DNA of 64,000 nucleotides from an uncultured Acidobacteriota bacterium (GTDB lineage: Bacteria; Acidobacteriota; Thermoanaerobaculia; UBA5066; DATFVB01). The notes under the pieces were generated by a model. The model was not told where the DNA came from. It worked only from the letters and a program-made list of their open reading frames with translations, and made no database searches. The DNA lies in NCBI GenBank assembly GCA_963813155.1, contig CAWEYG010000006.1, forward strand, positions 1 through 64,000, given 5' to 3'. Shown piece by piece: positions 44,589-62,866 of the stretch (positions are counted from its first letter, which is position 1; each line of letters begins with the position of its first letter). The translations under genes and the position numbers were made by a program.

Positions 44589-45742
44589 AGGACTCTCGAC
44601 TCACGGCTGACGAGGCGTCGCTTGCGGCCGCCCCGATCCGATCGTCGCGAAGGGTCCACCTGCCGGCGCTCGACGGGATCCGCGGATTTGGAGTGATGCT
44701 CGTCCTCCTGATCCACTTCGTCGGTTATGGCCCGGCCGCCCCGACGGACCAGGGGAAGGCCGTGCCGTTTCTCAACTTCCTCTCATTCGCGTTCGGCATC
44801 CCGGTGTTCTTCGTTCTCTCGGGCTTCCTGATCACCGGAATCCTTCTGGAGGCGCGCGAAAAGCCTCACTACTTCCGGAACTTCTATACGCGCCGCGTTC
44901 TTCGGATCTTTCCCCTGTATTACGGAGTGCTGGCCGTTCTTTTCGTGGTTCACCCGGCGTGGGGGCGCGCGATCGCGGGAAACTCGAGCCCGGGCTGGCT
45001 CTGGGCCTACATGTCGAACGTCGAACAGGCCCGTCAGAATAATATGACCTACCACTATCTGGGGCATTTCTGGTCGCTCGCGGTCGAAGAGCAGTACTAC
45101 CTCGTCTGGCCTTTCATCGTCCTGGCCTTTCGTCCCCGATATCTGTTCGCGGTCTGCGTCGCGTTGGGTGGTTTCTCGGTAGGCCTGCGATTTTTTCTGA
45201 CGGCGGGATGGGGTCATCTCGTCTCGACCTACGTGTTGACGCCGTGTCAGCTCGACCCGCTCTGCACGGGAGGCGCGCTGGCGATCCTCGTGCGGAAATG
45301 GCCGCTGCGGCGACTTCAGGTTTTCGCCCGTTTCGCCGTGTTCGGTTCCCTTGCGGCCTACTTTCTCCTGGGCTGGCAGAGCGAGCCCAGGGCGTCGCGG
45401 CAGCAGGTCGTGGGCCGGCCGCTTCTTTCCTGTTTTCTGTTCGGCGGAGTCGTTTTGCTCGCGATCGGGGAAACGGGGTTCTTTCGCCGCGTGCTGGGTG
45501 CCCGGCCAGTGACATTCCTCGGCAAGTACAGTTACGGTCTTTATGTCTTTCACTACATGCTCATGCCATTCTTCGCAGTCTGTTTCCCGAGACAGGAGCT
45601 CGGTCGCGAGCTCGGTTCGCCGCTCGCGGGGATCGCAAGCTCGATAGCGCTTTCGGCGGCCGCCGTTGTCCTCGTGTCGATCGCGAGCTACGAGCTCTAC
45701 GAGAAGCGATTCCTGCGGCTGAAAGCCCGGTTTTCGGCGTGA
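44582..45742 (+). CDS. Acyltransferase 3 family O-acyltransferase, copy 3
   Basis: Same motifs as copies 1 and 2. Confidence 0.9.
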   Translation: MSQDSRLTADEASLAAAPIRSSRRVHLPALDGIRGFGVMLVLLIHFVGYGPAAPTDQGKAVPFLNFLSFAFGIPVFFVLSGFLITGILLEAREKPHYFRNFYTRRVLRIFPLYYGVLAVLFVVHPAWGRAIAGNSSPGWLWAYMSNVEQARQNNMTYHYLGHFWSLAVEEQYYLVWPFIVLAFRPRYLFAVCVALGGFSVGLRFFLTAGWGHLVSTYVLTPCQLDPLCTGGALAILVRKWPLRRLQVFARFAVFGSLAAYFLLGWQSEPRASRQQVVGRPLLSCFLFGGVVLLAIGETGFFRRVLGARPVTFLGKYSYGLYVFHYMLMPFFAVCFPRQELGRELGSPLAGIASSIALSAAAVVLVSIASYELYEKRFLRLKARFSA

Positions 45743-46950
45743 AAGTTCTTTTTGTGAACCAGGTTTATACGCCGGATGTCGCGGCGACCGCCGGCCAGCT
45801 TGCGGATCTCGCGGAGGCAATGGCCGCTCGGGGAGACGAGGTCCGGGTGATCGCGTCGCGTCGCGGATATTCGGAAGCCGGGCGAAGTTTTCCTCGCCGG
45901 TCGGCGGTAAAGGGCGTACGGGTCGAGAGGGTCTGGGAGCCTCGTCTCGAGAAGCGCGGCTTCTGGCGGCGGATCGTTCGGGCGGCAGCTTTTTTCGCAG
46001 GAGCGGGCGTTCGCGCGCTTGCCGGCCCGCGGCCCGACGCGATCGTCGTCCTGACCTCGCCGCCGCTGCTTCCCGTTCTCGGCCGAACCGTCGCTGCGCT
46101 TCGGCGGCGGCCGTATGCGATCTGGCTGATGGATCTGAATCCGGACGAGGCGATTGCCGCCGGCGCCGTGCGGCCGGGTGGGGCGACCGCGAAGCTCCTC
46201 GCGGGGCTGACCCGCTTCAGTCTTCGAGGGGCGGCGAGGGTCGTCGTGCTCGACCGATTCATGAGGGAAAGGGTGGAACGTTACGGCGTGCAGCCGGACC
46301 GGACCGTGATAATCGCTCCCTGGTCGCACGATGCGGACGTGCGCGACGACGAAGCTGGAAGGAATCAGTTCCGGAAACGGCACGCCCTCGAGGGGCGAAT
46401 CGTCGTGATGTATGCGGGCAACTTCAGCCTCTGCCATCCTCTCGACACTCTTCTCGAGACGGCGCGAAGATTGAAAGACGAGCCCGATTTCCTCTTCCTC
46501 TTCGTCGGGGGCGGCGAAGGAGCTCGTCAGGTCCGGGCGGCCGCCGAGTCGGGAACGCTTCCGAACGTCCGGCTGCTCTCTTATCAGCCCCGGGAAGGAC
46601 TCGCGGCCTCGCTCTCGGCTGCCGACGTGCACGTCGTCGTCATGGGAAACGCGTACGTCGGGATTCTCCATCCTTCGAAGGTGTACAACGCGCTTCGCGT
46701 CAACCGGCCCGTGCTCTACATCGGTCCGGAAGAGAGCCCCGTCGCGGACGTCCTCGAGGCTGCCGGCAAGGGCGCCGTCTGGCGCTCCGTTCGGCATGGC
46801 GACGTCGACGGCGCGGTCCGCGCGCTTCGCGAGTTGCAAGACGAGCGGGGAGAGGGCGCCGGTCTGGAGGAGAGCTCCGCGGAGCGATCCGTTCCGCGTA
46901 TGATCACGGAGTTGGATCGGGTCGCGCGAAAGGAGAGCGGAAGATCGTGA
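45739..46950 (+). CDS. Glycosyltransferase family 4 (WcaI/WbuB-like)
   Basis: FVNQVYTPDVAAT, TSPP, MDLNPD, MYAGN, PSKVY. Confidence 0.85.
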   Translation: MKVLFVNQVYTPDVAATAGQLADLAEAMAARGDEVRVIASRRGYSEAGRSFPRRSAVKGVRVERVWEPRLEKRGFWRRIVRAAAFFAGAGVRALAGPRPDAIVVLTSPPLLPVLGRTVAALRRRPYAIWLMDLNPDEAIAAGAVRPGGATAKLLAGLTRFSLRGAARVVVLDRFMRERVERYGVQPDRTVIIAPWSHDADVRDDEAGRNQFRKRHALEGRIVVMYAGNFSLCHPLDTLLETARRLKDEPDFLFLFVGGGEGARQVRAAAESGTLPNVRLLSYQPREGLAASLSAADVHVVVMGNAYVGILHPSKVYNALRVNRPVLYIGPEESPVADVLEAAGKGAVWRSVRHGDVDGAVRALRELQDERGEGAGLEESSAERSVPRMITELDRVARKESGRS

Positions 46951-47942
46951 CAGCAGCTACGAGAGTCCTCGTGACGGGCGCCGGGGGGTTCATCGGCCAG
47001 CATCTCGCCACTTACCTCAAGAGCAAGGGTTACTGGGTGCGGGGCGCGGACCTGAAATTCCCCGAATACTCGCCGAGCGCCGCGGACGAATTTTCGATCC
47101 TGGACCTGCGCCGCTGGGAAAACTGCCTCGAGGCCACGAAGGACGTCGACGAAGTCTACGCGCTCGCGGCGGACATGGGTGGAATGGGGTTCATTTCGGC
47201 CAATCACGCCCAGGTGCTGCACAACAACGCTCTGATCAATCTCCATACGATCGAGGCGGCTCGCCAGAACGGCGTGAAGCGCTACGTTTACTCGTCCTCC
47301 GCGTGTGTTTATCCGCAGTATCGCCAGCGCGAGGCGAGCGTCACGCCGCTCAAGGAAGAGGATGCGATGCCGGCGGACCCGGAGGACGGATACGGCTGGG
47401 AGAAGCTCGTCACCGAGAAGCTCTGCGGGTACTACCGCCACGATTTCGGGCTTGCGACTCACGTCGTCCGGTTCCACAACATCTACGGGCCGAAAGGAAC
47501 GTGGGACGGGGGGCGGGAAAAGGCTCCCGCCGCGCTGTGCCGCAAGATCGCCGCCGCAAAGCTCGCCGGAAGCCGCGAGATCGAGATCTGGGGCGACGGC
47601 GAGCAGACTCGCTCTTTCTGCTACATCGACGACTGCACGACGGGTCTCGAAAAGCTGATGCGCAGCGACTACGGCGAGCCTCTCAACCTGGGCCAGGACC
47701 GGCTGATCTCGATCAACGCGCTGGCGGACCTGATCGCCTCGATCGCGGGGGTCTCGGTCGTCCGGAAGCACGTGGAAGGGCCGCAGGGCGTGCGCGGAAG
47801 AAATTCCGACAACTCGCGCCTTCGCCAGGTCCTGAAGTGGGAGCCGACCGTCTCGCTCGAGGACGGTCTGGCGAAGACCTACGCGTGGATCGAAGACCAG
47901 GTGAAGAAGCGGGCAACCGAAACTGTGAGCAGTGAAAAGTGA
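46947..47942 (+). CDS. GDP-mannose 3,5-epimerase-like SDR
   Basis: GAGGFIG, LAADMGGMGFI, SSACVYP, YGWEK, RFHNIYGP, REKAPAALCRK, GPQGVRGRNSDN (GME hallmark motifs). Confidence 0.85.
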   Translation: MTAATRVLVTGAGGFIGQHLATYLKSKGYWVRGADLKFPEYSPSAADEFSILDLRRWENCLEATKDVDEVYALAADMGGMGFISANHAQVLHNNALINLHTIEAARQNGVKRYVYSSSACVYPQYRQREASVTPLKEEDAMPADPEDGYGWEKLVTEKLCGYYRHDFGLATHVVRFHNIYGPKGTWDGGREKAPAALCRKIAAAKLAGSREIEIWGDGEQTRSFCYIDDCTTGLEKLMRSDYGEPLNLGQDRLISINALADLIASIAGVSVVRKHVEGPQGVRGRNSDNSRLRQVLKWEPTVSLEDGLAKTYAWIEDQVKKRATETVSSEK

Positions 47943-48089
47943 CTCGCAGACCCCCTTTTGCCGCTCGCGGCGCGAAGTCGTCGCAAAGGCCTTAGAACGC
48001 AGCGAGCGGAAAAGCGGGGCGAGTCCCATGACAGGACCCTCGCCGGCCGAGCAGTCTCTCCGAGGTGGCATGCCTAGGAAACTCGAGTA

Positions 48090-49931
48090 ATGCCGATCAT
48101 CTTTTTCGTCCTCCCGGCGATTCTGGCCGCCGCCATCAGTTTTTCCCTGACCCCGTTTGCGCGCCGTCTCGCCCTGCGGGTCGGCGCCGTGGACCAGCCG
48201 GGCCCGCGAAAGATGCACGCGCAGCCGACTCCGCGCCTGGGCGGTCTCGCGGTCGTCGCGTCGGTCTTCCTCGTGACCCTCCTGGTTCAGGCGGTCAACA
48301 ACCCGGGCATTCACAAGATCGAGCCCAGGCTTTTGACCGGGCTCGCGCTCGGAGTTCTGCCGGTGCTCGTCGTCTCGATCCGGGACGACATCCGCCCGCT
48401 GCGCGTCTTTCCGCGATTCCTCGCGCAGTTTGCGGGCGCGGGGATCGCGATGATGTACGGCATCCAGCTCGGAACGCGGATTCACCTCTTCGCCCTCGAC
48501 CTGTCGATCGGCTGGCTCTCGGTCCCGATTTCGCTTCTCTGGATCGTCGGGGTGACGAACGCGTTCAACATCGTCGACGGCCTCGACGGTCTCTCCGCCG
48601 GGCTCGCGCTCATCGCGGCCTTTTCCCTCGTCGGGGTGGGGTTGATGACGGGGCGTGTCGCGCTCGCGTCGATCTCGATGATCCTCGGTGGAGCGCTCGT
48701 GGGGTTCCTTCCGTACAACCTGTTCCCCGCGAGGATCTTTCTCGGGGACACGGGCTCGACCGCGATCGGCTTCTGGCTCGCGTGTCTTGCTCTTCGCGGC
48801 GGATCGACGCTGTCGGCGGGGATGGCCATTCTCGTTCCGATCCTCGTGATCGGCGTTCCGCTGACGGAAACTCTCGTTTCGATGATCCGTCGCTTCGTGC
48901 GCCGGATCGAGAAGAAGGGCGGGGGAGTGTTCTCCGCCGATCGCGAGCACATGCACCACCGCCTCGTCGCGAGCGGCATCACTCAGCGCCGGGCGGTCAT
49001 TCTTCTCTACAGCGCGGGAGTCGTCGCGGCCGCGGCGGCGCTCCTGTCGCTCTTTTTGACGGCTCAGGCCGCGGCGGTCCTCGTCGTTACCGTGCTCGCC
49101 GCGGCGGTGATCGGAATCACGCGCCTCAACTACGACGAGTTCGCTCTCGTTCGCCGCGGGTTCGTGCTGAAGATTTACGACGCCCCGGTGTTGAAGCGCG
49201 CGTTCTTCCCGGTCTTTTTCGACATCGCCCTGGTCGCGATCTCGATTTACGGGGCGATCGTGCTGAAGTCCGACGACTGGGGCCTCGTCTCGAGGCGCGC
49301 CCTGGCGCTCGAGCTGCTCGAGATCCTCCCGATCGTGACGATCGTCGTCTTCTGGTTTTTTCGGCTGTACAGGGGATCGTGGAGGAACGCGAGCATCGCC
49401 GACTTCATCCGGTCGAGCTCGGCGGTCGTGGCTTCTGCCGTTTTCGGCGCTCTCGTTTGCCTCGTGGTCCTGCGCAACCCGCCGAGAATCACCCTTTTCG
49501 TGATCGAGGCGCTGCTCCTTCTGCTCCTCGTCAACGGATCGAGGGCGTCTTACCGGCTGCTCTCCCACTGGAATCTCCGGTCCGTCCGGGAAGGGGAGCG
49601 CGTGCTCCTTTACGGGGCGGGACTCGCCGGGACGCTCGCGCTGCGGGAGATCCTGTCGAACCCCTCGTGGGGCATGCGACCCGTCGGGTTCATCGACGAC
49701 GATCCGGAGCGGATCGGCCGGGAGGTCAACGGATATCCGGTGATCGGGACACTCGCGTCGCTTCCCGAGGCGATCGGCGAGCGCCAGATCCGTTCGGTGA
49801 TCGTGGCCTCTCCCAAGATCGACCGGGAGCATCTCGCCGAGCTCGAGAAAATCGGCCGCGCGACAGGCATTCGGGTGAGCCGGTTCCGGATCGAATTCGT
49901 CGACATGGAGCCGGTGAAGACGCTTCCTTGA
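48090..49931 (+). CDS. WecA/MraY-family polyprenyl-phosphate sugar-1-phosphate transferase with extra TM segments and a C-terminal Rossmann-like domain
   Basis: DQPGPRKMH..PRLGG, DD, NAFNIVDGLDG, IFLGDTGS, DREHMHHRL, then VLLYGAG..GFIDDD. Confidence 0.85.
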   Translation: MPIIFFVLPAILAAAISFSLTPFARRLALRVGAVDQPGPRKMHAQPTPRLGGLAVVASVFLVTLLVQAVNNPGIHKIEPRLLTGLALGVLPVLVVSIRDDIRPLRVFPRFLAQFAGAGIAMMYGIQLGTRIHLFALDLSIGWLSVPISLLWIVGVTNAFNIVDGLDGLSAGLALIAAFSLVGVGLMTGRVALASISMILGGALVGFLPYNLFPARIFLGDTGSTAIGFWLACLALRGGSTLSAGMAILVPILVIGVPLTETLVSMIRRFVRRIEKKGGGVFSADREHMHHRLVASGITQRRAVILLYSAGVVAAAAALLSLFLTAQAAAVLVVTVLAAAVIGITRLNYDEFALVRRGFVLKIYDAPVLKRAFFPVFFDIALVAISIYGAIVLKSDDWGLVSRRALALELLEILPIVTIVVFWFFRLYRGSWRNASIADFIRSSSAVVASAVFGALVCLVVLRNPPRITLFVIEALLLLLLVNGSRASYRLLSHWNLRSVREGERVLLYGAGLAGTLALREILSNPSWGMRPVGFIDDDPERIGREVNGYPVIGTLASLPEAIGERQIRSVIVASPKIDREHLAELEKIGRATGIRVSRFRIEFVDMEPVKTLP

Positions 49932-49940
49932 CGCCAGGGT

Positions 49941-49988
49941 CCTCACCCCGACCTCTCGGTCACCCCTCTCCACCATGTGGAGAGGGGG
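49941..49988. repeat. Family A hairpin repeat, left flank of the DUF559 gene
   Basis: CCTCACCCCG..CCCCTCTCCACCATGTGGAGAGGGG. Confidence 0.85.
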
Positions 49989-50018
49989 AAAAACTTGAAT
50001 AGACTGTCGATCAAGCTG

Positions 50019-50402
50019 ATGAATTGGCCGCTCACAAAGCAGATCGTCAAACGGTTGCGGCGTCAACCAACTCCGGCGGAAGCGATCCTTTGGGAGCGGC
50101 TGCGAGGTGGCGGCGTCCACGGGCTAAAGTTTCGTCGTCAGCACGCGATCGGTTCGTTCATCGCAGATTTCTACTGCGCGCGACCGCTTCTCGTCATCGA
50201 GCTCGACGGGGGGATTCACGAGTTTCAGAAAGTGAGAGACCGTGAACGTCAGATATATCTTGAGCGGCGGGGCCGAGCGGTGCTGAGGTTCTCGAATGAA
50301 GAGGTCCTCGCTGACCTTGAGGGAGTTGTTTCCCGAATTGTCGAGGCAGCCGCGCTCCGCACCCCCTCTCCAGATGCTGGCAGCCTTCAGATCGAGAAGT
50401 GA
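50019..50402 (+). CDS. DUF559 (Vsr-like) endonuclease
   Basis: LRRQPTPAEAILWERLR, KFRRQH, FIADFYC, IELDGGIH, D..R, VLRFSN. Confidence 0.9.
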   Translation: MNWPLTKQIVKRLRRQPTPAEAILWERLRGGGVHGLKFRRQHAIGSFIADFYCARPLLVIELDGGIHEFQKVRDRERQIYLERRGRAVLRFSNEEVLADLEGVVSRIVEAAALRTPSPDAGSLQIEK

Positions 50403-50428
50403 ACGCGGGAGGGGGCGGGGGGGTGAGG
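50362..50428. repeat. Family A hairpin repeat, right flank of the DUF559 gene, interrupted
   Basis: CCCCCTCTCCAGATGCTGG, then CAGCCTTCAGA.., then GGAGGGGG..GGTGAGG. Confidence 0.75.
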
Positions 50429-50453
50429 CGCGGCTGGCAGAGCCCCAGGTCCC

Positions 50454-50482
50454 TTGCGGTCTCTTTCCCCTCGACTTAGAAT
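50454..50482 (+). promoter_or_regulatory. Putative sigma70 promoter of the PqqD/rSAM operon
   Basis: TTGCGG (50454-50459), 17-bp spacer, TAGAAT (50477-50482), 13 nt upstream of ATG 50496. Confidence 0.55.
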
Positions 50483-50495
50483 GGCCCTCGGGAAA

Positions 50496-50799
50496 ATGTC
50501 TCAAAACGAACGAATGGTGCGCGCGGATGGATTTGCGACCCGAAATGTCGCGGGTGAGACGATCCTCGTGCCGATTCGCAAGGGCGTCGCCGACCTCGAG
50601 TGCGTCTTCACGCTCGACGAGGTCGGCTACGGTCGTCTGGCGCGCTCTCGAGTCGCCGAAGAGCGCCGAGGAAGTCGCCGGCGAAATCGCCCGGGAGTTC
50701 GACGTGGACGAATCGGAGGCCCGGCGGGATGTTGCCGAGTTTCTCGGCGTCCTCCGGGAATCGCGTCTCGTTCGCGACGCGGGCGAGGCCGCGCCTTGA
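50496..50799 (+). CDS. PqqD-family RiPP recognition element (RRE) protein, one frameshift near 50628
   Basis: RNVAGETILVPI..FTLDEVG joined to VVWRALE..EEVAGEIAREFDVDESEARRDVAEFL..L..SRLV. About 100 aa with the PqqD pattern. Confidence 0.88.
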
Positions 50800-52074
50800 G
50801 CGCCGAAGTCGGGCGGTATCTCGACTTCAGCGCTGCGCTGAATTCGCGCGTTCTGCAGACCCGAATTCCGTCCGTCGTCTCGATCGAGGTCACCCGGCGG
50901 TGCTCTCTCAATTGCTCGCATTGCTACAACAACCTTCCGATGGCCGACATGGAGACGGCCCGGAAGGAGCTTCAGTTCGAAGACTACTGCCGGGTCCTGG
51001 ACGAGCTCGCCGAGATGGGAACGCTCTGGCTGCTGTTCACCGGCGGCGAGATCTTCGCGCGGCGCGACTTCCTGGACATCTATACGTACGCGAAAAAGAA
51101 GGGCTTCATCATCACGCTCTTCACGAACGGAACGCTGATCACGCCGAAGGTCGCCGACTACCTCGCGGAGTGGCCCCCGTTCTCGATCGAGATCACGCTG
51201 TACGGCCGGACGAAAGAAACTTACGAGCGGCTGACGCGCATCCCCGGATCCTACGAGAGGTGCATCCGCGGAATCGAGCTCCTGAAGGAGCGCGGTCTCC
51301 CGCTGACTCTCAAGACCGTCGCGGTGACCGTCAACAAGCACGAGATCTGGGACATGAAGAAGTTCGTGGAGGACGACCTCGGGCTGCCGTTCAAGTTCGA
51401 TCGCGATGATCAATGCGCGCATCGACTGCTCCCTGTCGCCGCTGGAAGTGCGGCTGACGCCGGAAGAGATCGTGGATCTCGATCTTCGGGACCCCGAGCG
51501 CCAGGAGGAGTGGAAGCGGTTCTCGACGAAATTCATCGCGCCGATGCATCCCGAAGGAAAAGAGGACGAGGTCTACCACTGCGGCGGAGGAGCGAACACC
51601 TTCGCGCTCGATCCACTGGGGAAAATGACGATCTGCGTCCTTTCGCACTTCGACGAATACGACGTGCGGGCCGGGACCGTCCGCGAGGGCTGGGAGCATT
51701 TTCTGCTTCGGGTTCGCGCGAAGAAGACGACGCGCATCACGAAGTGCACGGCCTGCCAGCTGAAGGCCGTTTGCGGAATGTGCGCCGCGAACGCGGAGCT
51801 GGAGAACGGCGACGCCGAGGCCCCGGTGGATTTCCTCTGCCACACGGCGCACCTGCGGGCTCACACCCTCGGTTGGGAAATCCCGGCGCACGGCGAGTGC
51901 GAGTACTGCGAGGGCGCCGGTTACGCGACGGTGCGGGAAGAGGCGGGTCGTTTGATGGCGGGGCAGGCCCCGCGTGCGCGTCCGGCCATGTTGCCCTCGC
52001 TTTCCCCGGCGGGAGAATCGATGTCGTCGCTTCCCTCCGCGGGGGGCGGATGCGGCGGATGCGGAAGCCACTGA
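50796..52074 (+). CDS. Radical SAM/SPASM-domain peptide maturase, frameshift near 51400
   Basis: CSLNCSHC, FTGGE, FTNG. SPASM-type CGGG..C..CTACQLKAVCGMC..C. Confidence 0.9.
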
Positions 52075-52106
52075 AAAGGACGATTCGAATCGGATGGAGG
52101 TGAGAG

Positions 52107-52292
52107 ATGGAACGGACCTCGGATAGAAACTCGAACGGCAAGAAAAAATATCGGAAACCGTCCGTGAGGATGATTCCCCTGCGGCCCGAAGAGGCGATTC
52201 TCGGTTCGTGCAAGAGCGCGACGACGGGAGCCTTGAATGGCGGCGGCGGCCACTGCAACATTCCCACGAATTGCTCCACGATCGGGTCCTGA
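52107..52292 (+). CDS. Putative RiPP precursor peptide (61 aa)
   Basis: Strong RBS GGAGGT, leader KKKYRKPSVRMIPLRPEEAILG, Gly/Ser/Thr-rich core with 3 Cys, directly after the rSAM gene. Confidence 0.8.
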   Translation: MERTSDRNSNGKKKYRKPSVRMIPLRPEEAILGSCKSATTGALNGGGGHCNIPTNCSTIGS

Positions 52293-53290
52293 GCGAGCCG
52301 GGCTCTCTCCCGGCCTTCTTCTCGGTCGCCCGCGAGGGATTCGTTCTCCATCCCCGGGGTTCCCTGAACATTCGCCTGGATCGCGCGAGCCGTCTCTTTT
52401 CGGGCGAGACCCCGGAAGACACCGTCGAATTCGACGTGCGATGGGGAGACCTGAGCGGCGTGGACCGCGGAGCGGCCGCATTCGACTCGGGCGGCTGCTG
52501 GGCGCTGCGCCGCGATCCGGACGCCCTCGTTTTCGACGTCTATTCGCCCCTTTTCGGGGCGACCCCCATCCATTCGCTCCGTCTCGACGGCGACCGGCGA
52601 AGGGGAGAGATCGTCCTGGAGCGTTCCCACTTCCGCGACGGGGAGGGCGTCGATCCGCTCGGATTTCCGCTCGCGGAGCTGCTCACCAACCAGCGCCTCG
52701 CGCGCGCCGGCGGAGTCGAATTCCACGGGTGCGGAATCCGGACGCCGGAAGGAGGCGGCCTCCTGTTCGTCGGCCATTCGGGCGACGGAAAGACGACGAC
52801 CGCGAAGCTGTGGGACGGCCGGCCGGGAGTCACGATCCTGAGCGACGACCGGATCATCGTGCGAGCCGAGGAGGGTGAGGAGGGCGTGCCTCACCGGCTG
52901 CGCCGCCCTTCGAGCATCTCGAGGGGAAGCGAGCTGCTCTCCGGGGGTGAGAAGGGTGGCGCGTCCGAGCGCCCGACAGCTCGTACCGCATCTACGGCAC
53001 TCCCTGGCACGGCGAGGGGCAGTTCGCGGCGAACGCCGACGCGCCCCTCACGGCGATCTTCATTCTGGAGCGCGGGAAAGCAACTCGCGCCGTCCCCGTC
53101 AACGGCGCGGAGGCCGTTTCGCTCCTCTTCGCGCGGGCTTTTCCGCCCTTCTACGACGCGGCGGCCGTCGAGGCTGTGCTCGAAACGATCGACAGGATCG
53201 TCGAACGCGTTCCCGTGTATCGATTCGCATTCGTTCCGGATGCCACCGCGATCGAGGCCGCGCTCGAGATCCGCCGGGGAGGCGCCGTGA
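52289..53290 (+). CDS. HPr-kinase-like P-loop protein, frameshifted
   Basis: FHGCG..LFVGHSGDGKTT..LSDDR..IYGTPWHG..FPPFYD..PVYRFAFVPD. Confidence 0.75.
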   Translation: MSEPGSLPAFFSVAREGFVLHPRGSLNIRLDRASRLFSGETPEDTVEFDVRWGDLSGVDRGAAAFDSGGCWALRRDPDALVFDVYSPLFGATPIHSLRLDGDRRRGEIVLERSHFRDGEGVDPLGFPLAELLTNQRLARAGGVEFHGCGIRTPEGGGLLFVGHSGDGKTTTAKLWDGRPGVTILSDDRIIVRAEEGEEGVPHRLRRPSSISRGSELLSGGEKGGASERPTARTASTALPGTARGSSRRTPTRPSRRSSFWSAGKQLAPSPSTARRPFRSSSRGLFRPSTTRRPSRLCSKRSTGSSNAFPCIDSHSFRMPPRSRPRSRSAGEAP

Positions 53291-53794
53291 GCACGAACGG
53301 TTTTTCGGAGCTGTGCGGCGACCTGCTTTCCGACGGAACGCCGATTCGTTTCCGGGCGACGCGGGGCGAGCATGGCTCCGGCGATCCGGGACGGCGACCT
53401 GTTGACGGTCGAGCCTGTCGCCAATCGCGCCCTTTCCGAAGGCGACATCGTGCTCTATCCGGTCGGAACTGGCTTTCGCGCCCATCGGGTGAGGAGCTTC
53501 GATCGGCACTGCAAAGAGTTGATCTGTCAGGGGGATAGCTGGTTCTGCCGTCCGGAGGTCGTTTCGGCCGGGGCGGTAATCGGGGTCGTGACGGGCCTCG
53601 GGTCGGGGGCGACCGCGGCTCCGCCCCGGCGGCCGTTGGTCATCTGGGGGAAGGCGCTCCGGGGACGTCTGGGGAGGGTGCTCCGGGCAGGCCTCAGGAT
53701 GGGATCTGGATTTCGGAGGGGAAAAATGGTAATCTCTCGACAGGCGTCGGAAGAGGGCCGACAAGGCTCCACGGGAAAGGGTTCACAAAAATGA
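53287..53794 (+). CDS. S24/S26-family peptidase (Ser-His type), frameshift near 53365
   Basis: IRFRA.G.SMAPAIRDGDLL, GDIVLY, AHRV, QGD. Confidence 0.8.
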
Positions 53795-56700
53795 AATTCA
53801 CTAGAACTTGTGTAGCCTGGAAGAGCTTTGCTCTTTTCGGGGCGTTGGTCTTCGCTGCGCTCGCTTTTTCGAGCACGGCATCGGCAGCCCTCGCCGTCGA
53901 TAGCACGAGCAATGCGAGCAGCGCCGGCGCAGTCAATTCGCTGAGCTGGGTTCACACGACGAACACCTCGACGACCGGGCAAAACACGCTGCTCGTCGTC
54001 GGCGTCTCGATCAACGGCACGAGCACCGTCTCGAGCGTCACGATGGGAGCGACTCTCGGTTCCATCGGCTCGAGTATTCCGAGCGACGACCTGCCCTCGA
54101 ACCTGACTCTCGCCACGAGCAAGAACAGCACGAACAACCTGACACGAATGGAGATCTGGTATCTCCTGGCCCCGCCGGTCAAAGGCACGACGGCGGGGGC
54201 TTCGGGCTCCGAGCCGACGCTTCAGATCACGGTGACGCTCTCGGGCGGGGCGACGAAGTCGATGGTCGCGGGCGCCGTCTTCTTCACGGGCGCGATGCAG
54301 GTCGCGCCGACGGCCTGGACCGCGACGACCGCGGCGACTGGGAATGCTTCGATCACCGGAACATCGAATGCGACCGACATCGTCGTGGACACGATCGCGA
54401 CGATCGGGACCGCGACCTCGGTGACGGTCGACGGGGCCAGACCTCTCGGTGGAACGTCGCGACGGGCGGACCGCCACGAACGCGATCGGCGGCGGATCGA
54501 CGAAGGCGAACGCAACGTCCATGTCGTGGACGATCGGGACCGACGCACGACTGGGCGATGGGCGCTGTCGTCGTGCAGGCCTCGGCAAACACCCGTTTCA
54601 CGGCACCCGCATCAACATGGACGACCTCTACGGCATCGACTCGAACAATCCGGCGAACCCGGCCGTACCTCTCGCCGATCGGCATTCACCTGACGAACAC
54701 CGGTGCGCAGTTGACGGACGTGTCGGTCACGATCACGCTTTTCGACACCCCGAACAGCTGCGGCAGCGGCGGCACGACGGCGTGCGTCACGCTCAACAAC
54801 ACGACGTTCACGTCGCAGACGATCCCGGCCAGCGGGTAGCTTCGACTATTACTTCATTCTGAACGAGAGCAACCTGTTCGCGAAGAACAACGCGAAGACG
54901 TCGATCAACAAGGCCTTCAGCTATGTGATCACGGTTCACAGCGCGACCGTGCCCGCGACGGACGACCGACACCTTTCCTCCGGAATGGAGATGGCGATCG
55001 ATCTCGTCTCGCAGAACCGGAACACGACGGATTTCACGTCGTGCAACGGTATCTCGAGCGGTGACCGGCACCAGCCCCCGGAACAGATCGCCGTCATCGG
55101 TTCACGCAGGGTCTCCGAATTCCAGTGCACGATCACGTCCACCTCGACCGGAAGCGGCGCGTTCAACACGATGCGTATCTGGCAGGACTGGGACGGACAA
55201 CACTTTCGTGATCGACAAGGTCGACACGAACTACCCGACGGCGCACTTAGTACAGCCCTGACGAGCCCGGACTGCTTCAACAACGGCTGCGGCGGCTCGG
55301 GCGTACCCGTACACCCAGGTTACGTCACGCTTCGCGCGCGTCGGCTCCCTGGATCGCCTGACCGACTCCGAACGGGGTCGTGCGTGACGCCCTTCATCCT
55401 GGATCGATTCGGGCGGAACCTTCCATTACAACCAGACGTCGCCGGCGTCACGGCGTCGATCACGATCACGACCCCCACGGCCGTGAAGCTCCGCAGTCTC
55501 GATGTCGCGCGGCAAGGCGAGGACAACGTGGTCTCCTGGCGAACGGGACACGAGGTGAACAACCTCGGATTCCGGATCTATCGGGAGGACGCCAACGGCG
55601 GGCGGGTTCCCGTCACCAACGGGCTCGTCGCCGGGAACGTGCTCTTCAGCGGACCGTCGATTGCTCTCACTTCCGGCCGCAGCTACAGCTACAGGGATCA
55701 AAACGCTCCCGCCGGAGCGGCGTACTGGCTCGAAGACGTGGATATTTCCGGACCGTCGACGATGAACGGTCCCGCGATCGCGCGCGAGGAGGAAGAAGCT
55801 TCGAGGCTCTTCCCGGCGAGCGGCCAGAGCGAGACGATGAAGGCCGGCGGCAACTCTCCGCTGCTCGATTCGAGCTCGTTTGTCGGCAAAGGCGGGCATG
55901 GAAGTTCGAGCTCTCCCGGTTTCGACTCGAAGCCCCACGGGAAAGTTCAATCGGGAACGGCCAGCACGACTTCGGCCAGCCAGAACAGGCAGTTTTCGCT
56001 CGCTTCGAGCGCGGGAGTGAAGGCCCTCGTGAATCAGGAGGGGTGGTACCACGTGAGCCATCAGGACCTGATCAACGCGGGTTGGAACCCCGGCAACTCG
56101 CCGGCGAATTTGCAGCTCTTCGTCGAGGCGCAGCCGATCCCCATGCTCGTGAGCGACTCGGGCGGCGGCAACTACTCGATGGAGTTCTACGCGACGGGAC
56201 TCAACACGGTGGCGACCGACACGCGCGTCTATTGGATCGGTCTCAACTCCACGCCCGGCTCGCGTCTGGCGAACAAGAGCTCGGCTTCCGGCAGCTCGCC
56301 GGGCGCCGACTTTCCGTTCACCGTCTCGCGAAGAGATCGGGTCGTGTACGTTCCGGGAATTTTGAACGGCGACGCGGAGAGCTGGTACGGACCCATCGTC
56401 GGCGGAACTTCGTTCGGACCGGCCGATCAGTCGGTCACGGTCACCCACCTCGACACCTCCAACAGCGGATCCGCCAACCTCGAGTTCGCGATCGAAACGG
56501 CCACGCCGTCGGTCGGTCACGCGATCGACGTGACGGTCAACGGCAATTTCGCGGGCACGGTGACGCACTTCGACCAGGGCTATTTCGATTCCAACCTTTC
56601 GATCCCGGTTTCATGGCTCGTCGAGGGCACGAACTCGATTCTTCTTCAGGAGGAAGGCGATTCGAACTTCGCGATCATGGACTACGTCGCGCTGACGTAT

Positions 56701-58053
56701 CCTCACGTCTTCACGGCGGATTCCGATGCCCTCGAATTCACGACATCCGGCTCGAAACACGTCTCGATCGGGGGCTTCACCGTTCCGGGCGTTCGGGTGT
56801 TCGACGTGACGAACCCGTCGGCCGTCGCGGCCCTCTCCGCATCCGTCGGGCCTGACGGGAGCGGCGGATATGCGGTCACGGTCAACACGCCGTCCGCCGT
56901 CGGGGCGCTTCGCATACTGGCGGTCGGCAGCGATCGGGTTTCCGCGCCGGCAGGTCTCGCAAACAACACGCCGTCGGACCTGAACAAGAAGAACAATTCC
57001 GCGGACTTCGCGATGATCGCGTACCCGTCGTTCGTTTCGGCGCTCGCGCCGCTGCAGGCGCTCCGGCAGTCGCAGGGGTTGGCGACGCAGGTCGTCGACG
57101 TCACCGACATCTACGACGAATTCAGCTTCGGCGAGAAGGATCCCGCCGCGATCAAGGCGTTCCTGCAGTGGACACAGGCGAACTGGAAGAAAGCGCCGAG
57201 GTACGTGCTTCTCGCCGGCGACGGGTCGTACGACCCGCGCGACTATTTCGGAATCGGGACGACGGACTTCATTCCCGCGAAGCTCGTCCAGACCGTGTAT
57301 CTCAAGACCGCTTCGGACGACTGGTACGTCGATTTCAACAACGACGGGCTTCCCGACATGGCGATCGGGCGCCTTCCGGCGGAGAGCCTGTCGGATGCGT
57401 CCACCATGGTTTCGAAGATCGTGGGCTACGACTCAGCGGCGCCGAGCTCGAGCGTCCTTCTCGTCGGGGACACCGAGGACGAGAACGACTTCCACGGCGC
57501 GATCTCGGCCCTCAAGACGCTCGTTGCCGGAAAGACGGCCCAGGCGATCTGTATCGACCCCGATCCGGTCGACGCGAGCTACCCGAACATCGGGCCCTGC
57601 GTGAGCGCTTCGACGGCGCACGGCCAGATCCTGAACGCCTTCAATAGCGGCCAGTCGGTCGTGAACTGGGTGGGACACGGCGAGCCGACGTCCTGGAGCA
57701 AGAGCGACGTCTTCGACACGTCCGACGTTCCGTCCCTCGCGAATTCCGCGCACCTGCCCCTTGCGCTCACGATGGACTGCCTGAACGGGTACTTCCATGA
57801 CCCGAACACCGAATCCTTCGCCGAGGCTCTCCTGCGCGCTCCGAACGGCGGCGCGGTGGCGGTGTGGGCGTCGTCTTCTCTGACTCTCTTCGAATCGCAG
57901 GTCCCGGTGAACCAGACGCTCTTCCAGCTTCTGTTCACGACGCCCGCCCCCCGGCTGGGCGACGCCGTGAAGACGGCGAAGGGCGTGACGACGGACTCCG
58001 ACGTTCGCAGGACCTGGAACTTCTTCGGCGATCCGACCATGAAACTGAAGTAA
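53791..58053 (+). CDS. Large secreted protein with a C-terminal C25 (gingipain-family) cysteine peptidase domain, N-terminal third frameshifted
   Basis: Signal peptide, Thr/Ser-rich beta domains, PTAVKL..W.TGHEVNNLGFRIYR module, DIYDEFSFG, YVLLAGD, SDDWY, AIGRLP, VGHG, MDCLNG, FGDP. Confidence 0.88.
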
Positions 58054-58084
58054 CGGCCAGTCGAGCTAGGCGTAGCCCCCTGGA

Positions 58085-58114
58085 AAGCCCCCGGAAACGG
58101 GGGCTTCTTTTTTT
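58085..58114 (+). terminator. Rho-independent terminator
   Basis: Perfect stem AAGCCCCCG-GAAA-CGGGGGCTT followed by C and T7, about 30 nt after the C25 stop. Confidence 0.9.
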
Positions 58115-58308
58115 GCGGATCGCCGGAGATTTCGTCTCACGCCATATTGAGAGTGCAACGCATGGGCCGCCTCCTAGTCTGGGCGGCAGCATGCGTAAGT
58201 TGCGTGTTTCAAGATAGTTTGAAGACTGCGATCTCGCTGGCCTCGCCGGGCGAGTCTCGATTCCGGATTTCGATTCTGGAAATTGGAGAGCGGTGAACTC
58301 ACCAGTCG

Positions 58309-58347
58309 TCTGAAGGCTGCCAGCTGGAGAGGGGGACGGGGGTGAGG
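58309..58347. repeat. Half family A repeat joined to the CAGCCTTCAGA motif (minus orientation)
   Basis: TCTGAAGGCTG CCAGCTGGAGAGGGGG..GGTGAGG. Confidence 0.7.
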
Positions 58348-58693
58348 TCGGTACGTCAACACCTGGATTGCTGGTGCGGGTGACGAACACCCTCCGTGAC
58401 CCTTTCCCGATTTCAAGAGGACGAATCTCTTCGCACTCCCCTTAGAGGACTCGCGCGAGACGCGACGGTTTTGAGCGACCTCGGCGACGAGCGTTCTCCC
58501 CTCCCTTCTCCAGAATTCCTTTCTCAGTTTCGGAAACCTCTTCCGCCCCGCCTTTCCCTCTCTCTTCTCAACCGATTCGTTTCTCGCAGGTTGACTCCGA
58601 TGGGTCGTGTCCGGCACGGCTGGTCCCGACATTGCGATCTCCCTTCGCCGAGTGGCAACGGAAACGAAACGAAAGAACGAAAGGGAGACGACA

Positions 58694-60883
58694 ATGAAAA
58701 CCACGACGAACCGGATCTCGACCCTGATTCTCGGAACGACTCTTCTTCTCTCCATCGGCAAGACCCGCCTGCGGCCGGCAAGGGCGGCGGCGGTGGCTCC
58801 ACCGGCGGCACGACGACGACGATCACGACGAATCCTCTGGCGGGCCAGGCCGGCGCGAAGATCTTCGTGCAGCAGGAAGGCTGGTACAGCGTCTCGCGTC
58901 AGAACCTGATCGACGCGGGATGGGATTGCGGAACTTCGGCCACGTACCTTCAGTTGTGGGCGGAGGGAACGCAGCAGTCCGATCCTGGTCAACGCGGGCA
59001 CGAACGGGACCCTGGACCCGACCGACACGATCGAGTTCTACGCGACGGGGATCGACACGCCGTCGACGGGCACGCGCGTCTACTGGCTCGTCCAGGGCAC
59101 GTCCCCCGGGCTTCGAATTGCGACTACGGCCGCTCCCAAGGGAAAGCTTGGGTCCACGCCGTCGAACTTCAATTCTTCGGTGAGCATCAATCCCAAAGAG
59201 TATTACGCGCCCGGAATCGCGAACGGCAGCCCGGACGGTTTCTACGGCGACATGGTGACTTCGACGCCGATCACGGAGTCGATCACGGTCATCGACCCGG
59301 CGTCCTCGACGGCAAGCGCGACTCTCACGGTGACTCTGACCAGGCGCCTACTGGTGGAGCCACAACGTCAACGTCAGCCTGAACGGCAACCTGGCGGGCT
59401 CGATGAACTTCAACGGCGAGCTCGTGCAGACGACGAGCTTCACCGTTCCGAGCTCCTGGATCGTTCCCGGCGCGAACTCGGTGACGTTCGTCGCCCCGGA
59501 CGGCGGCAACGACGTCAGCCTCGTCACGTCGATCTCTCTCACCTACCCGCGGCTCTACAAGGCCCTGAACAACTCGCTCAAGTCGACGGCGACCGGCAGC
59601 GTCTCGCTGCTCGGTCGACGGATTCTCGAATTCTTCGATCCGCGCCTTCGACATCACGACTCCGGCGACTCCGCAACAGCTCGTTGGTGACGATCTCGGC
59701 AGGGGGAGGGGGTTACTCGGCGACGCTTACGACGCCTAGCTCGACCGGGAACCGAACAGTGTTGGCAATTGCGACCGACCAGATCCTCTCTCCCGCCGGG
59801 ATCGTCCCCAACGTTTCCTCGAATCTGAGCGCGACCACGAACTCAGGCGAACTTCGTGATCATCGCGTACCCGACGATGATGTCGGCGGCTTCCGCCCTC
59901 GCCGCGCTCCGCCAGTCGCAGGGAATGCAGGTCTCCGTCGTCAACGTCACCGACGTTTACGACGAGTTCAACTTCGGCGAAAAGGACCCCTCGGCCATCA
60001 AGAACTTCCTTCAGTACACCCAGACCAAGTGGGCGAAGCCGCGCCTCGCTACGTGCTGCTCCTCGGTGGCGCGTCGTCGACACGCGGAACTACCTCGGCT
60101 ACGGCAACCTGGACCTCGTTCCGACGCGATTACATCGCGACGAGCGCTCAGCCGGACCGCCTCGGATGACTGGTTCGTCGATTTCAACAACGACGGGCTA
60201 CCGGACATGGCGATCGGACGGATTCCGGTGCTGACCGCCGCCGACGCTGCGACAGTGATCTCGAAGATCACGAGCTACGGCCAGACGACGGGCGCCTGGA
60301 CGAAGAACGTCCTGATGGCCGCCGACGCGAACGACGCGAACAATGATTTCGAAGGCGCGTCGGCCAACGTCGCCGCGCAGATCCCCATCGGCTATTCCGT
60401 CAGAACGTCTCTGACCGGGCAGATCGGCGGCTCAGCGGCTCGGACCGCGATCCCGGACGGCATCAACGTCAGGGGCAGCTCATCGTCAACTACAACGGGC
60501 CACGGTTTTGAGCAGGCGTGGAGCAGCTCGAGAATCTTCTACGATCGACGACATGTCCAACCTGACGAATGCATCACAGCTCCCCTTCGTCGTGTCGATC
60601 GGCTTGCCTGACCGGCTACTTCCAGGACCCGTCGACGGTTTCCTTCGCGGCTGCGGCGCTCTCAGCGCCGAATGCGGAGCCGTTGCCGTTTGGGCGTCCT
60701 CGGGGTTGCCCGGTCTTCCGGGTGAAGCGCTGGTAAACCAAGCGCTCTTCAGCGAGCCTGCTCGGCGGGAGCCGCCCGTCTCTCGGCGACGCGGTCATGC
60801 AGGCCAAGGCCGCAACGACCGACCAGGACGTTCGGCGAACCTGGATCTTGTTCGGCGATCCGACGATGAAGCTGGCGCAGTAA
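58694..60883 (+). CDS. Second secreted C25-family peptidase, shorter paralog, many frameshifts
   Basis: RBS AGGGAG, signal-like N-terminus, QEGWYSVS, DVYDEFNFGEKDP, ASDDWFVDFNNDGLPDMAIGRIP, GHG, C-LTGYFQDP, FGDPTMKL. Confidence 0.8.
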
Positions 60884-60926
60884 CGCCGGCTCCTTCGTCT
60901 TCGATTCGTTGTCCTCCCTCCACTCC

Positions 60927-60957
60927 GGCCCCTCTCCAGCGAACCTGGAGGGGGGCC
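60927..60957. repeat. Family A hairpin between convergent genes (possible terminator)
   Basis: GGCCCCTCTCCAG-CGAAC-CTGGAGGGGGGCC. Confidence 0.65.
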
Positions 60958-60992
60958 GTCCCTTTTGTGGAGCGGAAGAGTGTCGTGTTGCG

Positions 60993-62866
60993 TTAGCGGC
61001 GCCGGACGGTTGTGCTCTTCGGCGCGCACTGCAAGTTACCAGGGCTCAGCCGGAAAATTTGCGCCTGGATGTCGGGTGACCGCTTGAAGGGATTGCGCGT
61101 CGCCGATCGAAAGATCCGGACCGGCGAGTCGGGGACGGCGCAGGGGGCGAGCGTGGATGTCAGATTGCGCTCCACCGGAAGAACGAGAACCGTGGCACCC
61201 GACGATCGAGCGAGAGAGAAGATGTTCTTCGGGAAGGGCTCGGCCGAGTAGTTCGCGGCGTCGCTTCCGACGAAAGGGCGGGGAATCAGGGCCGAGGACC
61301 GGAAGACGGCGAGGACGACATCCGAGTCCCGAAGAGTCCGGTCGAGCCATCGGGCTTCGGCGTAGCCATTCGCGTGGGCAGTCATCACTCGGTCGCGCCA
61401 GCCGTTTGAAAACGCGCCGGGAATCAGAATTACCGCCATCCCGACGGCGACGATTGCCGTGGCCGCGCCTTGAAGCGAGAGGGCTTTGAACAGGAGGGCC
61501 TTTCGGGGACCTGGCGATGCGGCGACGGCGGCCGCCCCTGCCCAGAGATACGGTTCGAGAAAAAACCTCGCCGACAGCTGGCCGAAAGCCACGATCAGGA
61601 TCGTCGACATGAAGGCGGCGGCGAGAAAGAGTCTGGACTTGCCTCGGGTTCCGAACGCGGTAACGCCCGCGAAGACGCCGAGGCCGAGCATCGTCGAAAA
61701 GTCCGCGGGATGGATCGTTGCGGTCAGATCGAGGGGCAGGCGAATCAACCGGCCGAAGGATCGCGGGCCCGCATAGTCCCGCAGGTATTCCGCGAATCGG
61801 ATCACGGCGGGATCGGGCTGGCCGCGAAGCCTCTCGAGCAGGGGAGAGAGCGGATCGCCGTAGAAAGCGAAACTTCGGGCGTAGACCGGGAGTGCGAAGA
61901 ACGAGAAAGCTGCGGCGGTGATTCCCGCGGCCGTGACGAGCCGGCCGCAGCGGCGAGCAGCCGTCGAGCGCGAGAGCCAGCACGACGAGTCCTGAGAGGA
62001 GAAACGAATACTTGCAGGCGATCGCGAACATGGTTGCTCCGATTGCGAGCGTGAGGATCCCGGCGTCGAGGTTGTTCCCGGAGCGCACGATCAGGGCCAG
62101 AGCCAACGTCAGTGCGGCGGCGGGCAGAAGCTGCGGTTTCTGATTCGGAACCAGGAAGAGCATCAGGGGACAGGCCACGACGAGCAGCGCCGCGAGGATT
62201 CGTCCCCGGCGATCACTCGCGCCGGCCGAGAGAGCGATCACGGCGGCGACGAGCCCCGAGAATTGAAAGACCGCGCTCAGGACATCAGTCCCCGCCGCAA
62301 GTCCCAGGAGGTTCAGCCCTTCCCCGAGTCCTGTCAGCCGAGCGCAGAACCAGTCAGGCCTCGGGTAGGCGGCTCCATGGCGAATCCAATCCAGAGGGAC
62401 GCCGAGGTGGTAGTCGAGTGAGTCGGCGTCGGTAGGGGGGGCAAGGGCCGCCGCGCCGAGGGCGCAGGTCGTTACCGCCAGCGCCGACGAGTGCGATCCG
62501 CTCGAAGGACCGGGACCTCGCAGACGCGGCTCCGAAGCGACGTGACATCTTGCTCGTGTCCGGCGAGCCAGCCGGGGAATTTCGAAGGCTCCGGCGACGG
62601 CCAGCGCTCGCCCGAGCCAGCGCAGACCCGATGGGAAATGCGAATCCGGACCATGCGGCGGCGAGCGAGACACGAGGCGAGTCCAGCCGCAGCGAGGATG
62701 AAGCCGGCCGCCCGGTCGAGGCGATCGTCACTTCCGGGTCGAATCCTGGACGCGATCGAGCGCCCGACACCGGCGGTAGCCGAGAACGATCAGATACCGC
62801 GAGCACGGCGGGAAGAGGCTCCGCGAGCACGAGATCGGCGAGCTGGAGAAAGTGCGTTTGCGTCAT
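60993..62866 (-). CDS. DUF1420-like polytopic membrane protein (GT-C-like), frameshifted
   Basis: PPTDADSLDYHLGVP, NQKPQL, ACKYSF, GQLSARFFLEPY, many TM segments. Confidence 0.65.

Follow-up and report, generated by a model that had tools for sequence, protein, structure and literature searches.

The closest experimentally studied system to the gene cassette described here is the group of LPP (linear polyphosphorylated peptide) clusters LppA/LppB/LppK/LppS of Bacillota (Popov et al., Nat Commun 2026, PMC13381572). The cassette lies at 50.4 to 58.1 kb on the plus strand of a 64,000-nucleotide stretch of DNA (contig CAWEYG010000006.1, positions 1 to 64,000; hereafter the window) from an uncultured soil bacterium of the Acidobacteriota, class Thermoanaerobaculia. 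It comprises six co-directional genes, for a discrete PqqD-type recognition element (RRE) of the kind known from peptides that are ribosomally synthesized and modified post-translationally (RiPPs), a radical S-adenosylmethionine (rSAM) enzyme with a SPASM domain, a 61-amino-acid precursor peptide, a kinase-like protein resembling HPr kinase (HPrK), an S26-like serine peptidase, and a secreted C25 cysteine peptidase. In the LPP clusters, the HprK-like LppK polyphosphorylates core Ser3, and LppS, of the signal peptidase I (SpI) type, cuts the leader only with the RRE protein LppB. The LPP core also includes an NTP transferase and an MsbA exporter, the leaders follow a YxxPxVL pattern, and the clusters reside within capsule loci. 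The main text of that article restricts LPP to Bacillota and does not mention radical SAM, SPASM, C25, or Acidobacteria; its supplementary table places Acidobacteriota SpI/RRE pairs of the present type in SSN cluster 3, which is left unanalyzed.

Two further systems share parts of this gene set. In the phosphorylated lasso peptides (paeninodin and pseudomycoidin; PadeK, ThcoK, SyanK, and PsmK), HPrK-like kinases with a His-Lys-Asp-Asp motif phosphorylate the C-terminal Ser of the linear precursor, according to a review (PMC9266682). SynChlorMet, by comparison, is a bioinformatic system only, defined by the NCBIfam models TIGR04248 to TIGR04251, for which our literature search found no paper.

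On balance, the unit in the window is best explained as one member of a large, uncharacterized family of RiPP-type cassettes, a reading that draws on sequence and analogy. In the pathway we propose, the RRE would bind the YxxPx(V/L) leader of the 61-amino-acid peptide and present the peptide to three enzymes. The rSAM/SPASM protein would install at least one crosslink at three invariant Cys residues, thioethers being the likeliest chemistry. The kinase, with its fold of the HPrK/phosphoenolpyruvate carboxykinase (PEPCK) type, would phosphorylate a Ser, most likely the invariant C-terminal one, as in paeninodin-type lasso precursors. The cytoplasmic S26 peptidase would remove the leader in an RRE-dependent manner, like LppS, cutting at or near ...A-V/I-L-G / x-C-K, and the modified peptide would then act together with the co-encoded secreted C25 peptidase. 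Such a cassette would join radical SAM crosslinking, lasso/LPP-type phosphorylation, and a signal-peptidase-type leader protease in one pathway. An earlier sequence-only reading of this DNA had proposed a crosslinked, possibly phosphorylated peptide functionally tied to the C25 protease. That proposal is supported as far as sequence goes. The analysis establishes which genes are present, that they are conserved, and that they are coupled to C25; crosslinking, phosphorylation of the terminal Ser, cleavage of the leader, and, most of all, the part played by C25 are what we infer.

Gene content and conservation of the cassette

The six-gene set and its shared orientation, as first read from the sequence, were borne out by hidden Markov model (HMM) scans of the frame pieces and by intact orthologs in relatives (Table 1). 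Of 40 relatives within the order, 6 contain an rSAM homolog at E ≤1e-28. One of these 6, an unpublished genome of the same genus (G002), carries the cassette with the S26 gene and two C25 genes. We then scanned for related loci, taking one genome per species, and obtained 44 loci, of which the 18 with rSAM identity of at least 35% served as the comparison set; 3 of these 18 are identical with loci of three of the relatives, in agreement with the most likely placement of the host in Thermoanaerobaculia. The set is mostly from Acidobacteriota (Thermoanaerobaculia, with Holophagales, Bryobacterales, Pyrinomonadaceae, Terriglobales, and Acidobacteriaceae also represented) and extends to Anaerolineales, Sandaracinaceae, Kiritimatiellae, and Desulfobacterales.

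The cassette is conserved across these loci. The PqqD and kinase-like genes were found in 18/18 and the S26-like gene in 13/18. The sequence-only reading would have failed had homologous rSAM loci lacked a conserved peptide or C25; they keep the peptide (17/18, with none in L051) and usually C25 (12/18). Among the loci in which C25 was missing, L042 and L047 are contigs of less than 5 kb, and L051 has less than 3 kb of flanking sequence at either end of the cassette. Apart from the cassette genes, no family, transporters included, recurred in more than three related loci of the 18. Ser/Thr kinases and a phosphoesterase, each recurring in 3 loci from related taxa, were judged incidental. As the sequence-only reading had noted, the unit holds no ABC exporter or lasso cyclase: none was found among the six genes or the scanned open reading frames (ORFs) of 38 to 64 kb.

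The kinase-like family is large, with 2,502 cluster representatives at E ≤1e-30 in a library of 1.84 billion representatives. By this count, the cassette is commonplace among uncultured bacteria of soils and sediments.

Table 1. Features of the cassette and its immediate surroundings, in window coordinates
Feature	Coordinates	Strand	Remarks	Evidence
PqqD-type RRE gene	50481..50799	+	start uncertain: ATG 50481, 50496, or 50514	PF05402
Radical SAM/SPASM gene	50796..52074	+	TTG start overlapping PqqD stop	PF04055, TIGR04085
61-aa precursor peptide gene	52107..52292	+	intact; GGAGG upstream	18-peptide alignment
HPr-kinase/PEPCK-fold kinase-like gene (ScmC-like)	52271..53290	+		weak TIGR04355, TIGR04249; ortholog fold and motifs
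Sec11/SipW-type S26 (S24-like) serine peptidase gene	53287..53794	+		TIGR02228, PF00717, family alignment
Secreted C25 (PorU/gingipain-like) cysteine peptidase gene	53791..58053	+		PF01364, NF033707
Intrinsic-terminator-like hairpin and T-run	58085..58114	+	end of unit	structure scan
Second tandem C25 paralog	58396..60880	+	heavily fragmented	tblastn pieces in three frames; PF01364

Relation to SynChlorMet, LPP, and lasso clusters

A similarity to SynChlorMet had been suggested from the sequence. At the superfamily level it stands: like the cassette, SynChlorMet combines a PqqD-like protein, an rSAM/SPASM enzyme, and an ScmC-like kinase fold, the two being linked by weak reciprocal HMM matches, and Pfam PF27840 (ScmC) occurs in 17 to 51% of members among the Atlas neighbors of the kinase. 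Membership does not follow, all Scm models scoring far below their cut-offs. For ScmC (TIGR04249, cut-off 125) the window fragments gave no match and intact orthologs gave 25.5 and 20.1 bits. For ScmD (TIGR04248, cut-off 100) an ortholog gave 19.9 bits, and lasso PqqD models scored best. For ScmE and ScmF (cut-off 400 each) the scores were 82 and 73 bits and 60 and 69 bits, respectively. Where SynChlorMet has the ScmE/ScmF rSAM pair, the cassette has a single rSAM gene. To our knowledge, S26 and C25 partners are not part of SynChlorMet. In the wider scan, contigs of Methanoregula metagenome-assembled genomes (MAGs; L058 to L061) carry two tandem rSAM/SPASM genes with 25 to 31% identity to the query, and these are probably genuine SynChlorMet-type cassettes with ScmE/ScmF.

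The cassette is closer to LPP. Both have a discrete PqqD-type RRE, a YxxPx(V/L) leader, and an HprK-like kinase, and both appear to use an archaeal/endoplasmic reticulum-type homolog of signal peptidase I as a cytoplasmic, RRE-dependent leader peptidase. Polysaccharide genes adjoin the studied LPP example, as they do the cassette in the window. The cassette differs in adding the rSAM/SPASM enzyme and C25, in the three invariant Cys residues and the invariant C-terminal Ser of its peptide, and in its hosts, which are Acidobacteriota and other Gram-negative phyla rather than Bacillota. The remainder of the published LPP motif (VLxHQxIxFETxxS) is absent from the cassette peptides. The NTP transferase and MsbA exporter of the LPP core were not found among the six genes, the ORFs of 38 to 64 kb, or the families that recur in the 18 loci.

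That the cassette simply belongs to one of these defined systems is very improbable. The shared RRE, kinase, SpI-type peptidase, and YxxP leader speak for LPP, together with the SSN cluster 3 entry in the supplementary table, and the PqqD-like, rSAM/SPASM, and ScmC-like components speak for SynChlorMet. However, SynChlorMet membership is already refuted by the cut-offs, with the single rSAM gene also counting against it, and LPP has a core with an NTP transferase and an MsbA-type exporter and without rSAM or C25.

The cassette resembles the phosphorylated lasso peptides in four respects: its RRE is of the lasso type, its leader carries YxxP, its HPrK-like kinase conserves His, Lys, Asp, and Asp, and its precursor has a conserved C-terminal Ser, the residue that the lasso kinases phosphorylate (PMC9266682). 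It differs in its class-defining enzyme, an rSAM/SPASM protein, and in its leader peptidase, a serine peptidase of family S26; a lasso cyclase or B2 cysteine protease was found neither in the six genes and scanned flanks nor among the families recurring in the 18 loci. In the open literature, with subscription journals and bioRxiv supplements outside the scope, we found no characterized pathway of this architecture, in agreement with the sequence-only reading.

Precursor peptide, RRE, and proposed leader cleavage

In its C-terminal part, the window PqqD matches PF05402 (E 2.6e-12); its N-terminal in-frame piece (50514 to 50624, 37 amino acids only) has no Pfam match. The best NCBIfam matches are lasso PqqD chaperones, below cut-off. 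A profile built from 18 RRE orthologs found the lasso RRE TbiB1 as its best solved relative (5.6e-13), followed by two 2026 PqqD-family PDB entries (9x8z and 9x90), TfuB1, and PqqD.

No Pfam or NCBIfam model matched the 61-amino-acid peptide, and its features were read from an alignment of 18 sequences, the window included. The layout is a K/R-rich N terminus, a YxxPxV leader motif, the segment PLRPEEAILG, a Cys-Lys pair, two more Cys residues, and a C-terminal Gly-Ser. Invariant in 18/18 are Y15, P18, L25, E29, C35, K36, C50, C56, and S61; G60 is nearly so, with 17/18 peptides ending in Gly-Ser, whereas position 20 varies among V, L, I, and A. The three Cys residues sit in the C-terminal 25 to 30 residues. 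A divergent Kiritimatiellae peptide (L054) has two Cys residues and ends in Ala. The N-terminal part of the aligned peptides is a lasso/LPP-type leader with the pattern YxxPx(V/L/I).

The candidate leader peptidase matched TIGR02228, the archaeal-type signal peptidase I model, at 4.7e-4 and PF00717 at 3.5e-3, both weak. In the family alignment the Ser of the SMxP motif is nearly invariant, the His of HR and the Asp of GD are invariant, and the best PDB matches of the family profile are SEC11C and SEC11A. No hydrophobic segment was found in the S26-like protein. We take it to be soluble and the probable RRE-dependent leader peptidase. We modeled the RRE, peptide, and S26 protein of an intact locus (L048) as a complex, each chain with its own family alignment. 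The model reached an ipSAE of 0.62, versus 0.00 for the best control, with partner pLDDT of at least 78 and at least 64% of contacts shared between runs. This mark was reached by 116/157 solved complexes and 2/215 mismatched pairs, a comparison that is rough for a model with its own alignments and three chains. In the model, leader residues just before x-Cys-Lys contact S26 around the regions of the Ser, His, and Asp, and the N-terminal helix of S26 packs on the RRE. The arrangement resembles the AlphaFold3 picture published for LppS-LppB-LppA, in which the N-terminal helix of the peptidase lies against the RRE-leader sheet. Part of the score may reflect likeness to solved RRE-leader complexes, of which none is solved with a peptidase. 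The model supports, rather than shows, RRE-dependent leader cleavage near Leu-Gly / x-Cys-Lys.

Radical SAM enzyme and kinase-like protein

The rSAM protein matched PF04055 (1.2e-23, 84.5 bits) and the SPASM model TIGR04085 (31.9 bits, above the cut-off of 27), and it aligns end to end with intact orthologs at 52 to 76% identity. In the alignment, the CxxxCxxC core and the full set of SPASM cysteines are present. The protein has no fused RRE, and its RRE partner gene lies directly upstream. An rSAM ortholog from another genome (G025; L016:2190-2358) has an open frame without ATG, GTG, or TTG at the expected start, which may reflect an unusual start codon or a local error.

The kinase gave a weak HprK-related match (TIGR04355, 1.1e-3). 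A model of an ortholog (pLDDT 91) matched ATP-dependent PEPCK (E ~3e-7) and HPrK/P structures (E ~1e-4). Conservation across 17 orthologs is complete at H158, Lys180 of the P-loop, D198, and R200 and almost complete at D199, and the orthologs share the GxSGxGK[ST] and SDD motifs; the translated window kinase keeps the His, GxSGxGK[ST], and SDD residues, all upstream of an insertion described below. By analogy, these His, Lys, Asp, and Asp residues appear to occupy the same positions as the lasso-kinase motif. Phosphorylation is the more plausible because all 18 peptides end in Ser and the kinase keeps the His, the P-loop Lys, and the Asp-Asp pair. Kinase-S24 fusions also exist (P0013, P0091, and P0099).

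The C25 peptidase and its coupling to the cassette

The C25 protein has a PF01364 domain (1.9e-80, 271 bits, above cut-off) at its extreme C terminus. Its best NCBIfam model is that of PorU (NF033707), the C-terminal signal peptidase/sortase of type IX secretion, matched over ~730 model positions at 245 bits against a cut-off of 420; two orthologs scored 208 and 249 bits. The best PDB match of the family profile was PorU (6za2, 2.8e-36), followed by RgpB (2e-29). The His of GHG and the Cys of DCLNG are invariant in 9 family members, and in the window they align with RgpB His211 and Cys244, which we take to be the catalytic dyad. A hydrophobic segment at residues 6 to 37 forms an N-terminal signal or anchor segment. 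The protein thus resembles PorU and the gingipains of family C25 in its profile match and its aligned His and Cys; unlike PorU, it falls below the model cut-off, has no C-terminal sorting domain behind the C25 domain, and is tied to a RiPP cassette. We make no claim for Lys/Arg specificity at S1: the alignment is poor around what we take to be the specificity residue of RgpB, Asp163, a position occupied by His in the window.

C25, a large secreted cysteine peptidase of clan CD, is coupled to the cassette by co-occurrence, adjacency, and gene fusion. All three PF01364 matches of this genome fall at this locus. Among the 40 relatives, strong C25 matches (E <1e-60) occurred in exactly the 6 genomes with the rSAM homolog; 2 of the remainder had marginal C25 fragments and 32 had none. 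Since the relatives are not independent of one another, this co-occurrence is a description rather than a test of significance. In those six genomes, several further C25 genes lie 3 to 10 kb from rSAM paralogs, on the same contig and strand. At three loci from different orders (L046, L049, and L053), a single ORF of 1,232 to 1,579 amino acids encodes S26, one hydrophobic segment, and C25 together; basic residues precede the hydrophobic segment, which places S26 in the cytoplasm and C25 outside. In the fusion of the Sandaracinaceae MAG (L053:9890-14626), a subtilase (S8) domain additionally separates the membrane span from C25. On a Bdellovibrio MAG contig (L062, 4892 to 10903), a distant rSAM gene (23% identity) is accompanied by a PqqD gene and, a few kilobases away, a C25 gene, a hint that pairing of rSAM with C25 is not confined to the family as we define it.

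How the coupling works is the least certain part of the proposal. Our preferred reading, held tentatively, is that C25 is a dedicated extracytoplasmic protease for a second processing or activating step on the exported peptide. Once worked out, this link could add a RiPP class with two-step leader removal, by S26 and then C25.

A different role for the peptide deserves consideration, though we judge it unlikely: it may be a dedicated partner of C25, acting as a substrate-like inhibitor or regulator, a crosslinked subunit, or an acceptor or anchor of a PorU-like transpeptidase. The subunit variant is modeled on QhpC, a small Cys-containing peptide that is crosslinked by the SPASM enzyme QhpD and serves as the gamma subunit of quinohemoprotein amine dehydrogenase. 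The likeness to QhpD itself is weak: the SPASM part matches TIGR03906 at 0.0027, 16 bits against a cut-off of 453, and the cassette differs in its partner enzymes and in having a kinase and S26. Within the set of 40 relatives, strong C25 genes are confined to cassette genomes and adjoin the cassette, a pattern that fits a partnership, as do the S26-membrane span-C25 and kinase-S26 fusions. So do the C25 profile, nearer to the type IX secretion system sortase PorU than to gingipains, the conservation of the Lys beside the first Cys and of the terminal Gly-Ser, and the lack of a conserved exporter typical of secreted RiPPs. Yet some cassettes have no nearby C25, the peptide must still cross the membrane, and the window lacks a conserved acidic residue at the position corresponding to RgpB Asp163, in a poorly aligned stretch.

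In a stronger form of this idea, the product would be no antibiotic-like secreted RiPP; instead, bacteria that lack type IX secretion would depend on a crosslinked, C-terminally phosphorylated peptide as an obligate working component of their PorU-like surface transpeptidase. We regard it as quite unlikely. The peptide could serve as acceptor or anchor for C25-ligated cargo or as a trans-acting regulator or subunit of C25, and the S26-membrane span-C25 fusions would mark the hand-over point; the finding would be of a RiPP-like peptide as a component of a surface protease/transpeptidase system. For the SprA/Sov and GldM/PorM components of type IX secretion, the 90.8%-complete genome gave no TIGR04189 or TIGR03517 match, and control genomes gave none either.

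Several observations weigh against the proposed pathway, including its processing role for C25. The rSAM protein exceeds the cut-off of no characterized maturase family (PapB, 66 versus 340 bits; StsB, 85 versus 625; AlbA, 61 versus 850; SCIFF maturase, 15 versus 425), and its chemistry could therefore be other than thioether formation. Disulfide formation or metal binding is an alternative role for the three Cys residues. No member of the cassette family has yet yielded an observed product, crosslink, or phosphate. In LPP, the phosphorylated Ser is core residue 3 and not the C terminus (PMC13381572). No exporter is conserved in the cassette, either in the ORFs of 38 to 64 kb or across the 18 loci, and the route of a cytoplasmic peptide to an extracellular C25 is therefore unexplained. 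Finally, C25 is absent from the available DNA of 6/18 loci, and in three of these (L050, L052, and L054) the sequence extends at least 6 kb past the cassette in both directions. The intact orthologs provide directly testable constructs.

State of the cassette in this assembly

Alignment with orthologs and a frame plot of GC content at third codon positions (GC3) indicated that 5/6 genes are interrupted in this assembly, the peptide gene alone being intact, with ~8 frame changes in 7.6 kb across the cassette. The PqqD gene has a +1 shift near 50625 to 50629, and the rSAM gene is split by one extra base at ~51401 to 51403. The kinase gene carries an insertion of ~85 nucleotides at ~52877 to 52962 plus a frame change; the insertion is absent from 5 homologs, is single copy in the genome, and has stops in two frames. 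The kinase's C-terminal part lies in another frame, running on into the N terminus of S26, and the S26 gene is frameshifted near 53358. The N-terminal third of C25 has three frame changes (~54420, 54550, and 54790), its C-terminal 1,042 codons being open. The second C25 paralog has at least 5 frame changes and in-frame stops, with PF01364 matches at 59853 to 60536 and at 60464 to 60874, the latter containing 3 stops; a terminator-like hairpin follows at 60926 to 60958. As assembled, the window copy may be non-functional.

We compared 226 long ORFs of a complete genome of the same family with the assembly and found 98 clear orthologs. Of these 98, which are conserved long genes outside the locus, at least 13 are split between adjacent frames, some at 80 to 93% protein identity, so that indel errors affect the assembly in general. 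Split genes include C1:49077-51849 and C3:700091-703832. Most shifts at the locus are +1, as are, in our own reading, most of the clear ones elsewhere. This bias suggests an unpolished long-read assembly prone to insertions. Short-read soil contigs of close relatives (~90 to 99% identical) cover parts of the locus only; they lack the extra base at 50629 (one run, with a contig of ~95% identity) and at 51401 (two runs). In one relative's soil contig (X2), divergence from the window begins after 52860, directly ahead of the kinase insertion.

Since at least 13/98 conserved long genes elsewhere are also split, we consider assembly error the likely cause of the breaks, in preference to decay. Two features count the other way. 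The frameshift density is ~1 per kb here versus ~0.1 per kb elsewhere, the 10 kb upstream being intact genes and rpoB being open; and the ~85-nucleotide kinase insertion is no simple read error, so that real decay is possible. On these grounds, and on the additional breaks in the second C25 copy, the uniqueness of the insertion, and the patchy distribution of the cassette among the relatives, the region from ~50.5 to 61 kb could be viewed as a decaying pseudogene island with no working operon in this genome. We think this rather improbable. Besides the split genes elsewhere, the shifts are nearly all +1, the long open parts show no build-up of premature in-frame stops, GC3 periodicity remains strong, and the close soil relatives have the corrected frame at both shift sites covered by contigs.

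Gene junctions, transcription signals, and flanking genes

Four of the five junctions had been read as 4-nucleotide start/stop overlaps. This holds for two, PqqD/rSAM (TTGA, 50796 to 50799) and S26/C25 (ATGA, 53791 to 53794), both of which are clean. For the other three it does not. At HPrK/S26, the overlap GTGA (53287 to 53290) works only with an assumed indel, because the C terminus of the kinase lies there in another frame. The rSAM and peptide genes are separated by a 32-nucleotide gap holding a GGAGG ribosome-binding site, and the peptide and HPrK genes overlap by 22 nucleotides if the start is TTG 52271. A GC-rich hairpin after the peptide stop (52297 to 52314) was considered as a conserved attenuator and set aside, as z was < -2 relative to shuffles in 4/18 loci only.

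The strong terminator predicted after C25 was recovered: at 58085 to 58106, a stem of 9 pairs, 7 of them GC, with a loop of 4 is followed by the T-run CTTTTTTTGC. The sigma-70-like promoter placed at 50454 to 50482 was not supported. A scan of 49900 to 61200 found 0 sigma-70-like sites (0.7 expected by chance), and the proposed -35 hexamer matches TTGACA at 3/6 positions.

Just upstream, at 40431 to 50402, lies an intact polysaccharide-modification block followed by a DUF559 endonuclease-like gene. The block encodes a carbamoyltransferase, three tandem Acyl_transf_3 paralogs, an epimerase, and a GT4 polyprenyl-phosphate transferase with a CoA-binding domain fused to it. Conservation of this setting does not extend to the 18 related loci. 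On the other side, at 60993 to 61805 on the minus strand, a 270-amino-acid ORF matches only positions 421 to 588 of the 672 in the DUF1420 model, and probably represents one more gene cut short or frameshifted, here at the margin of the damage.

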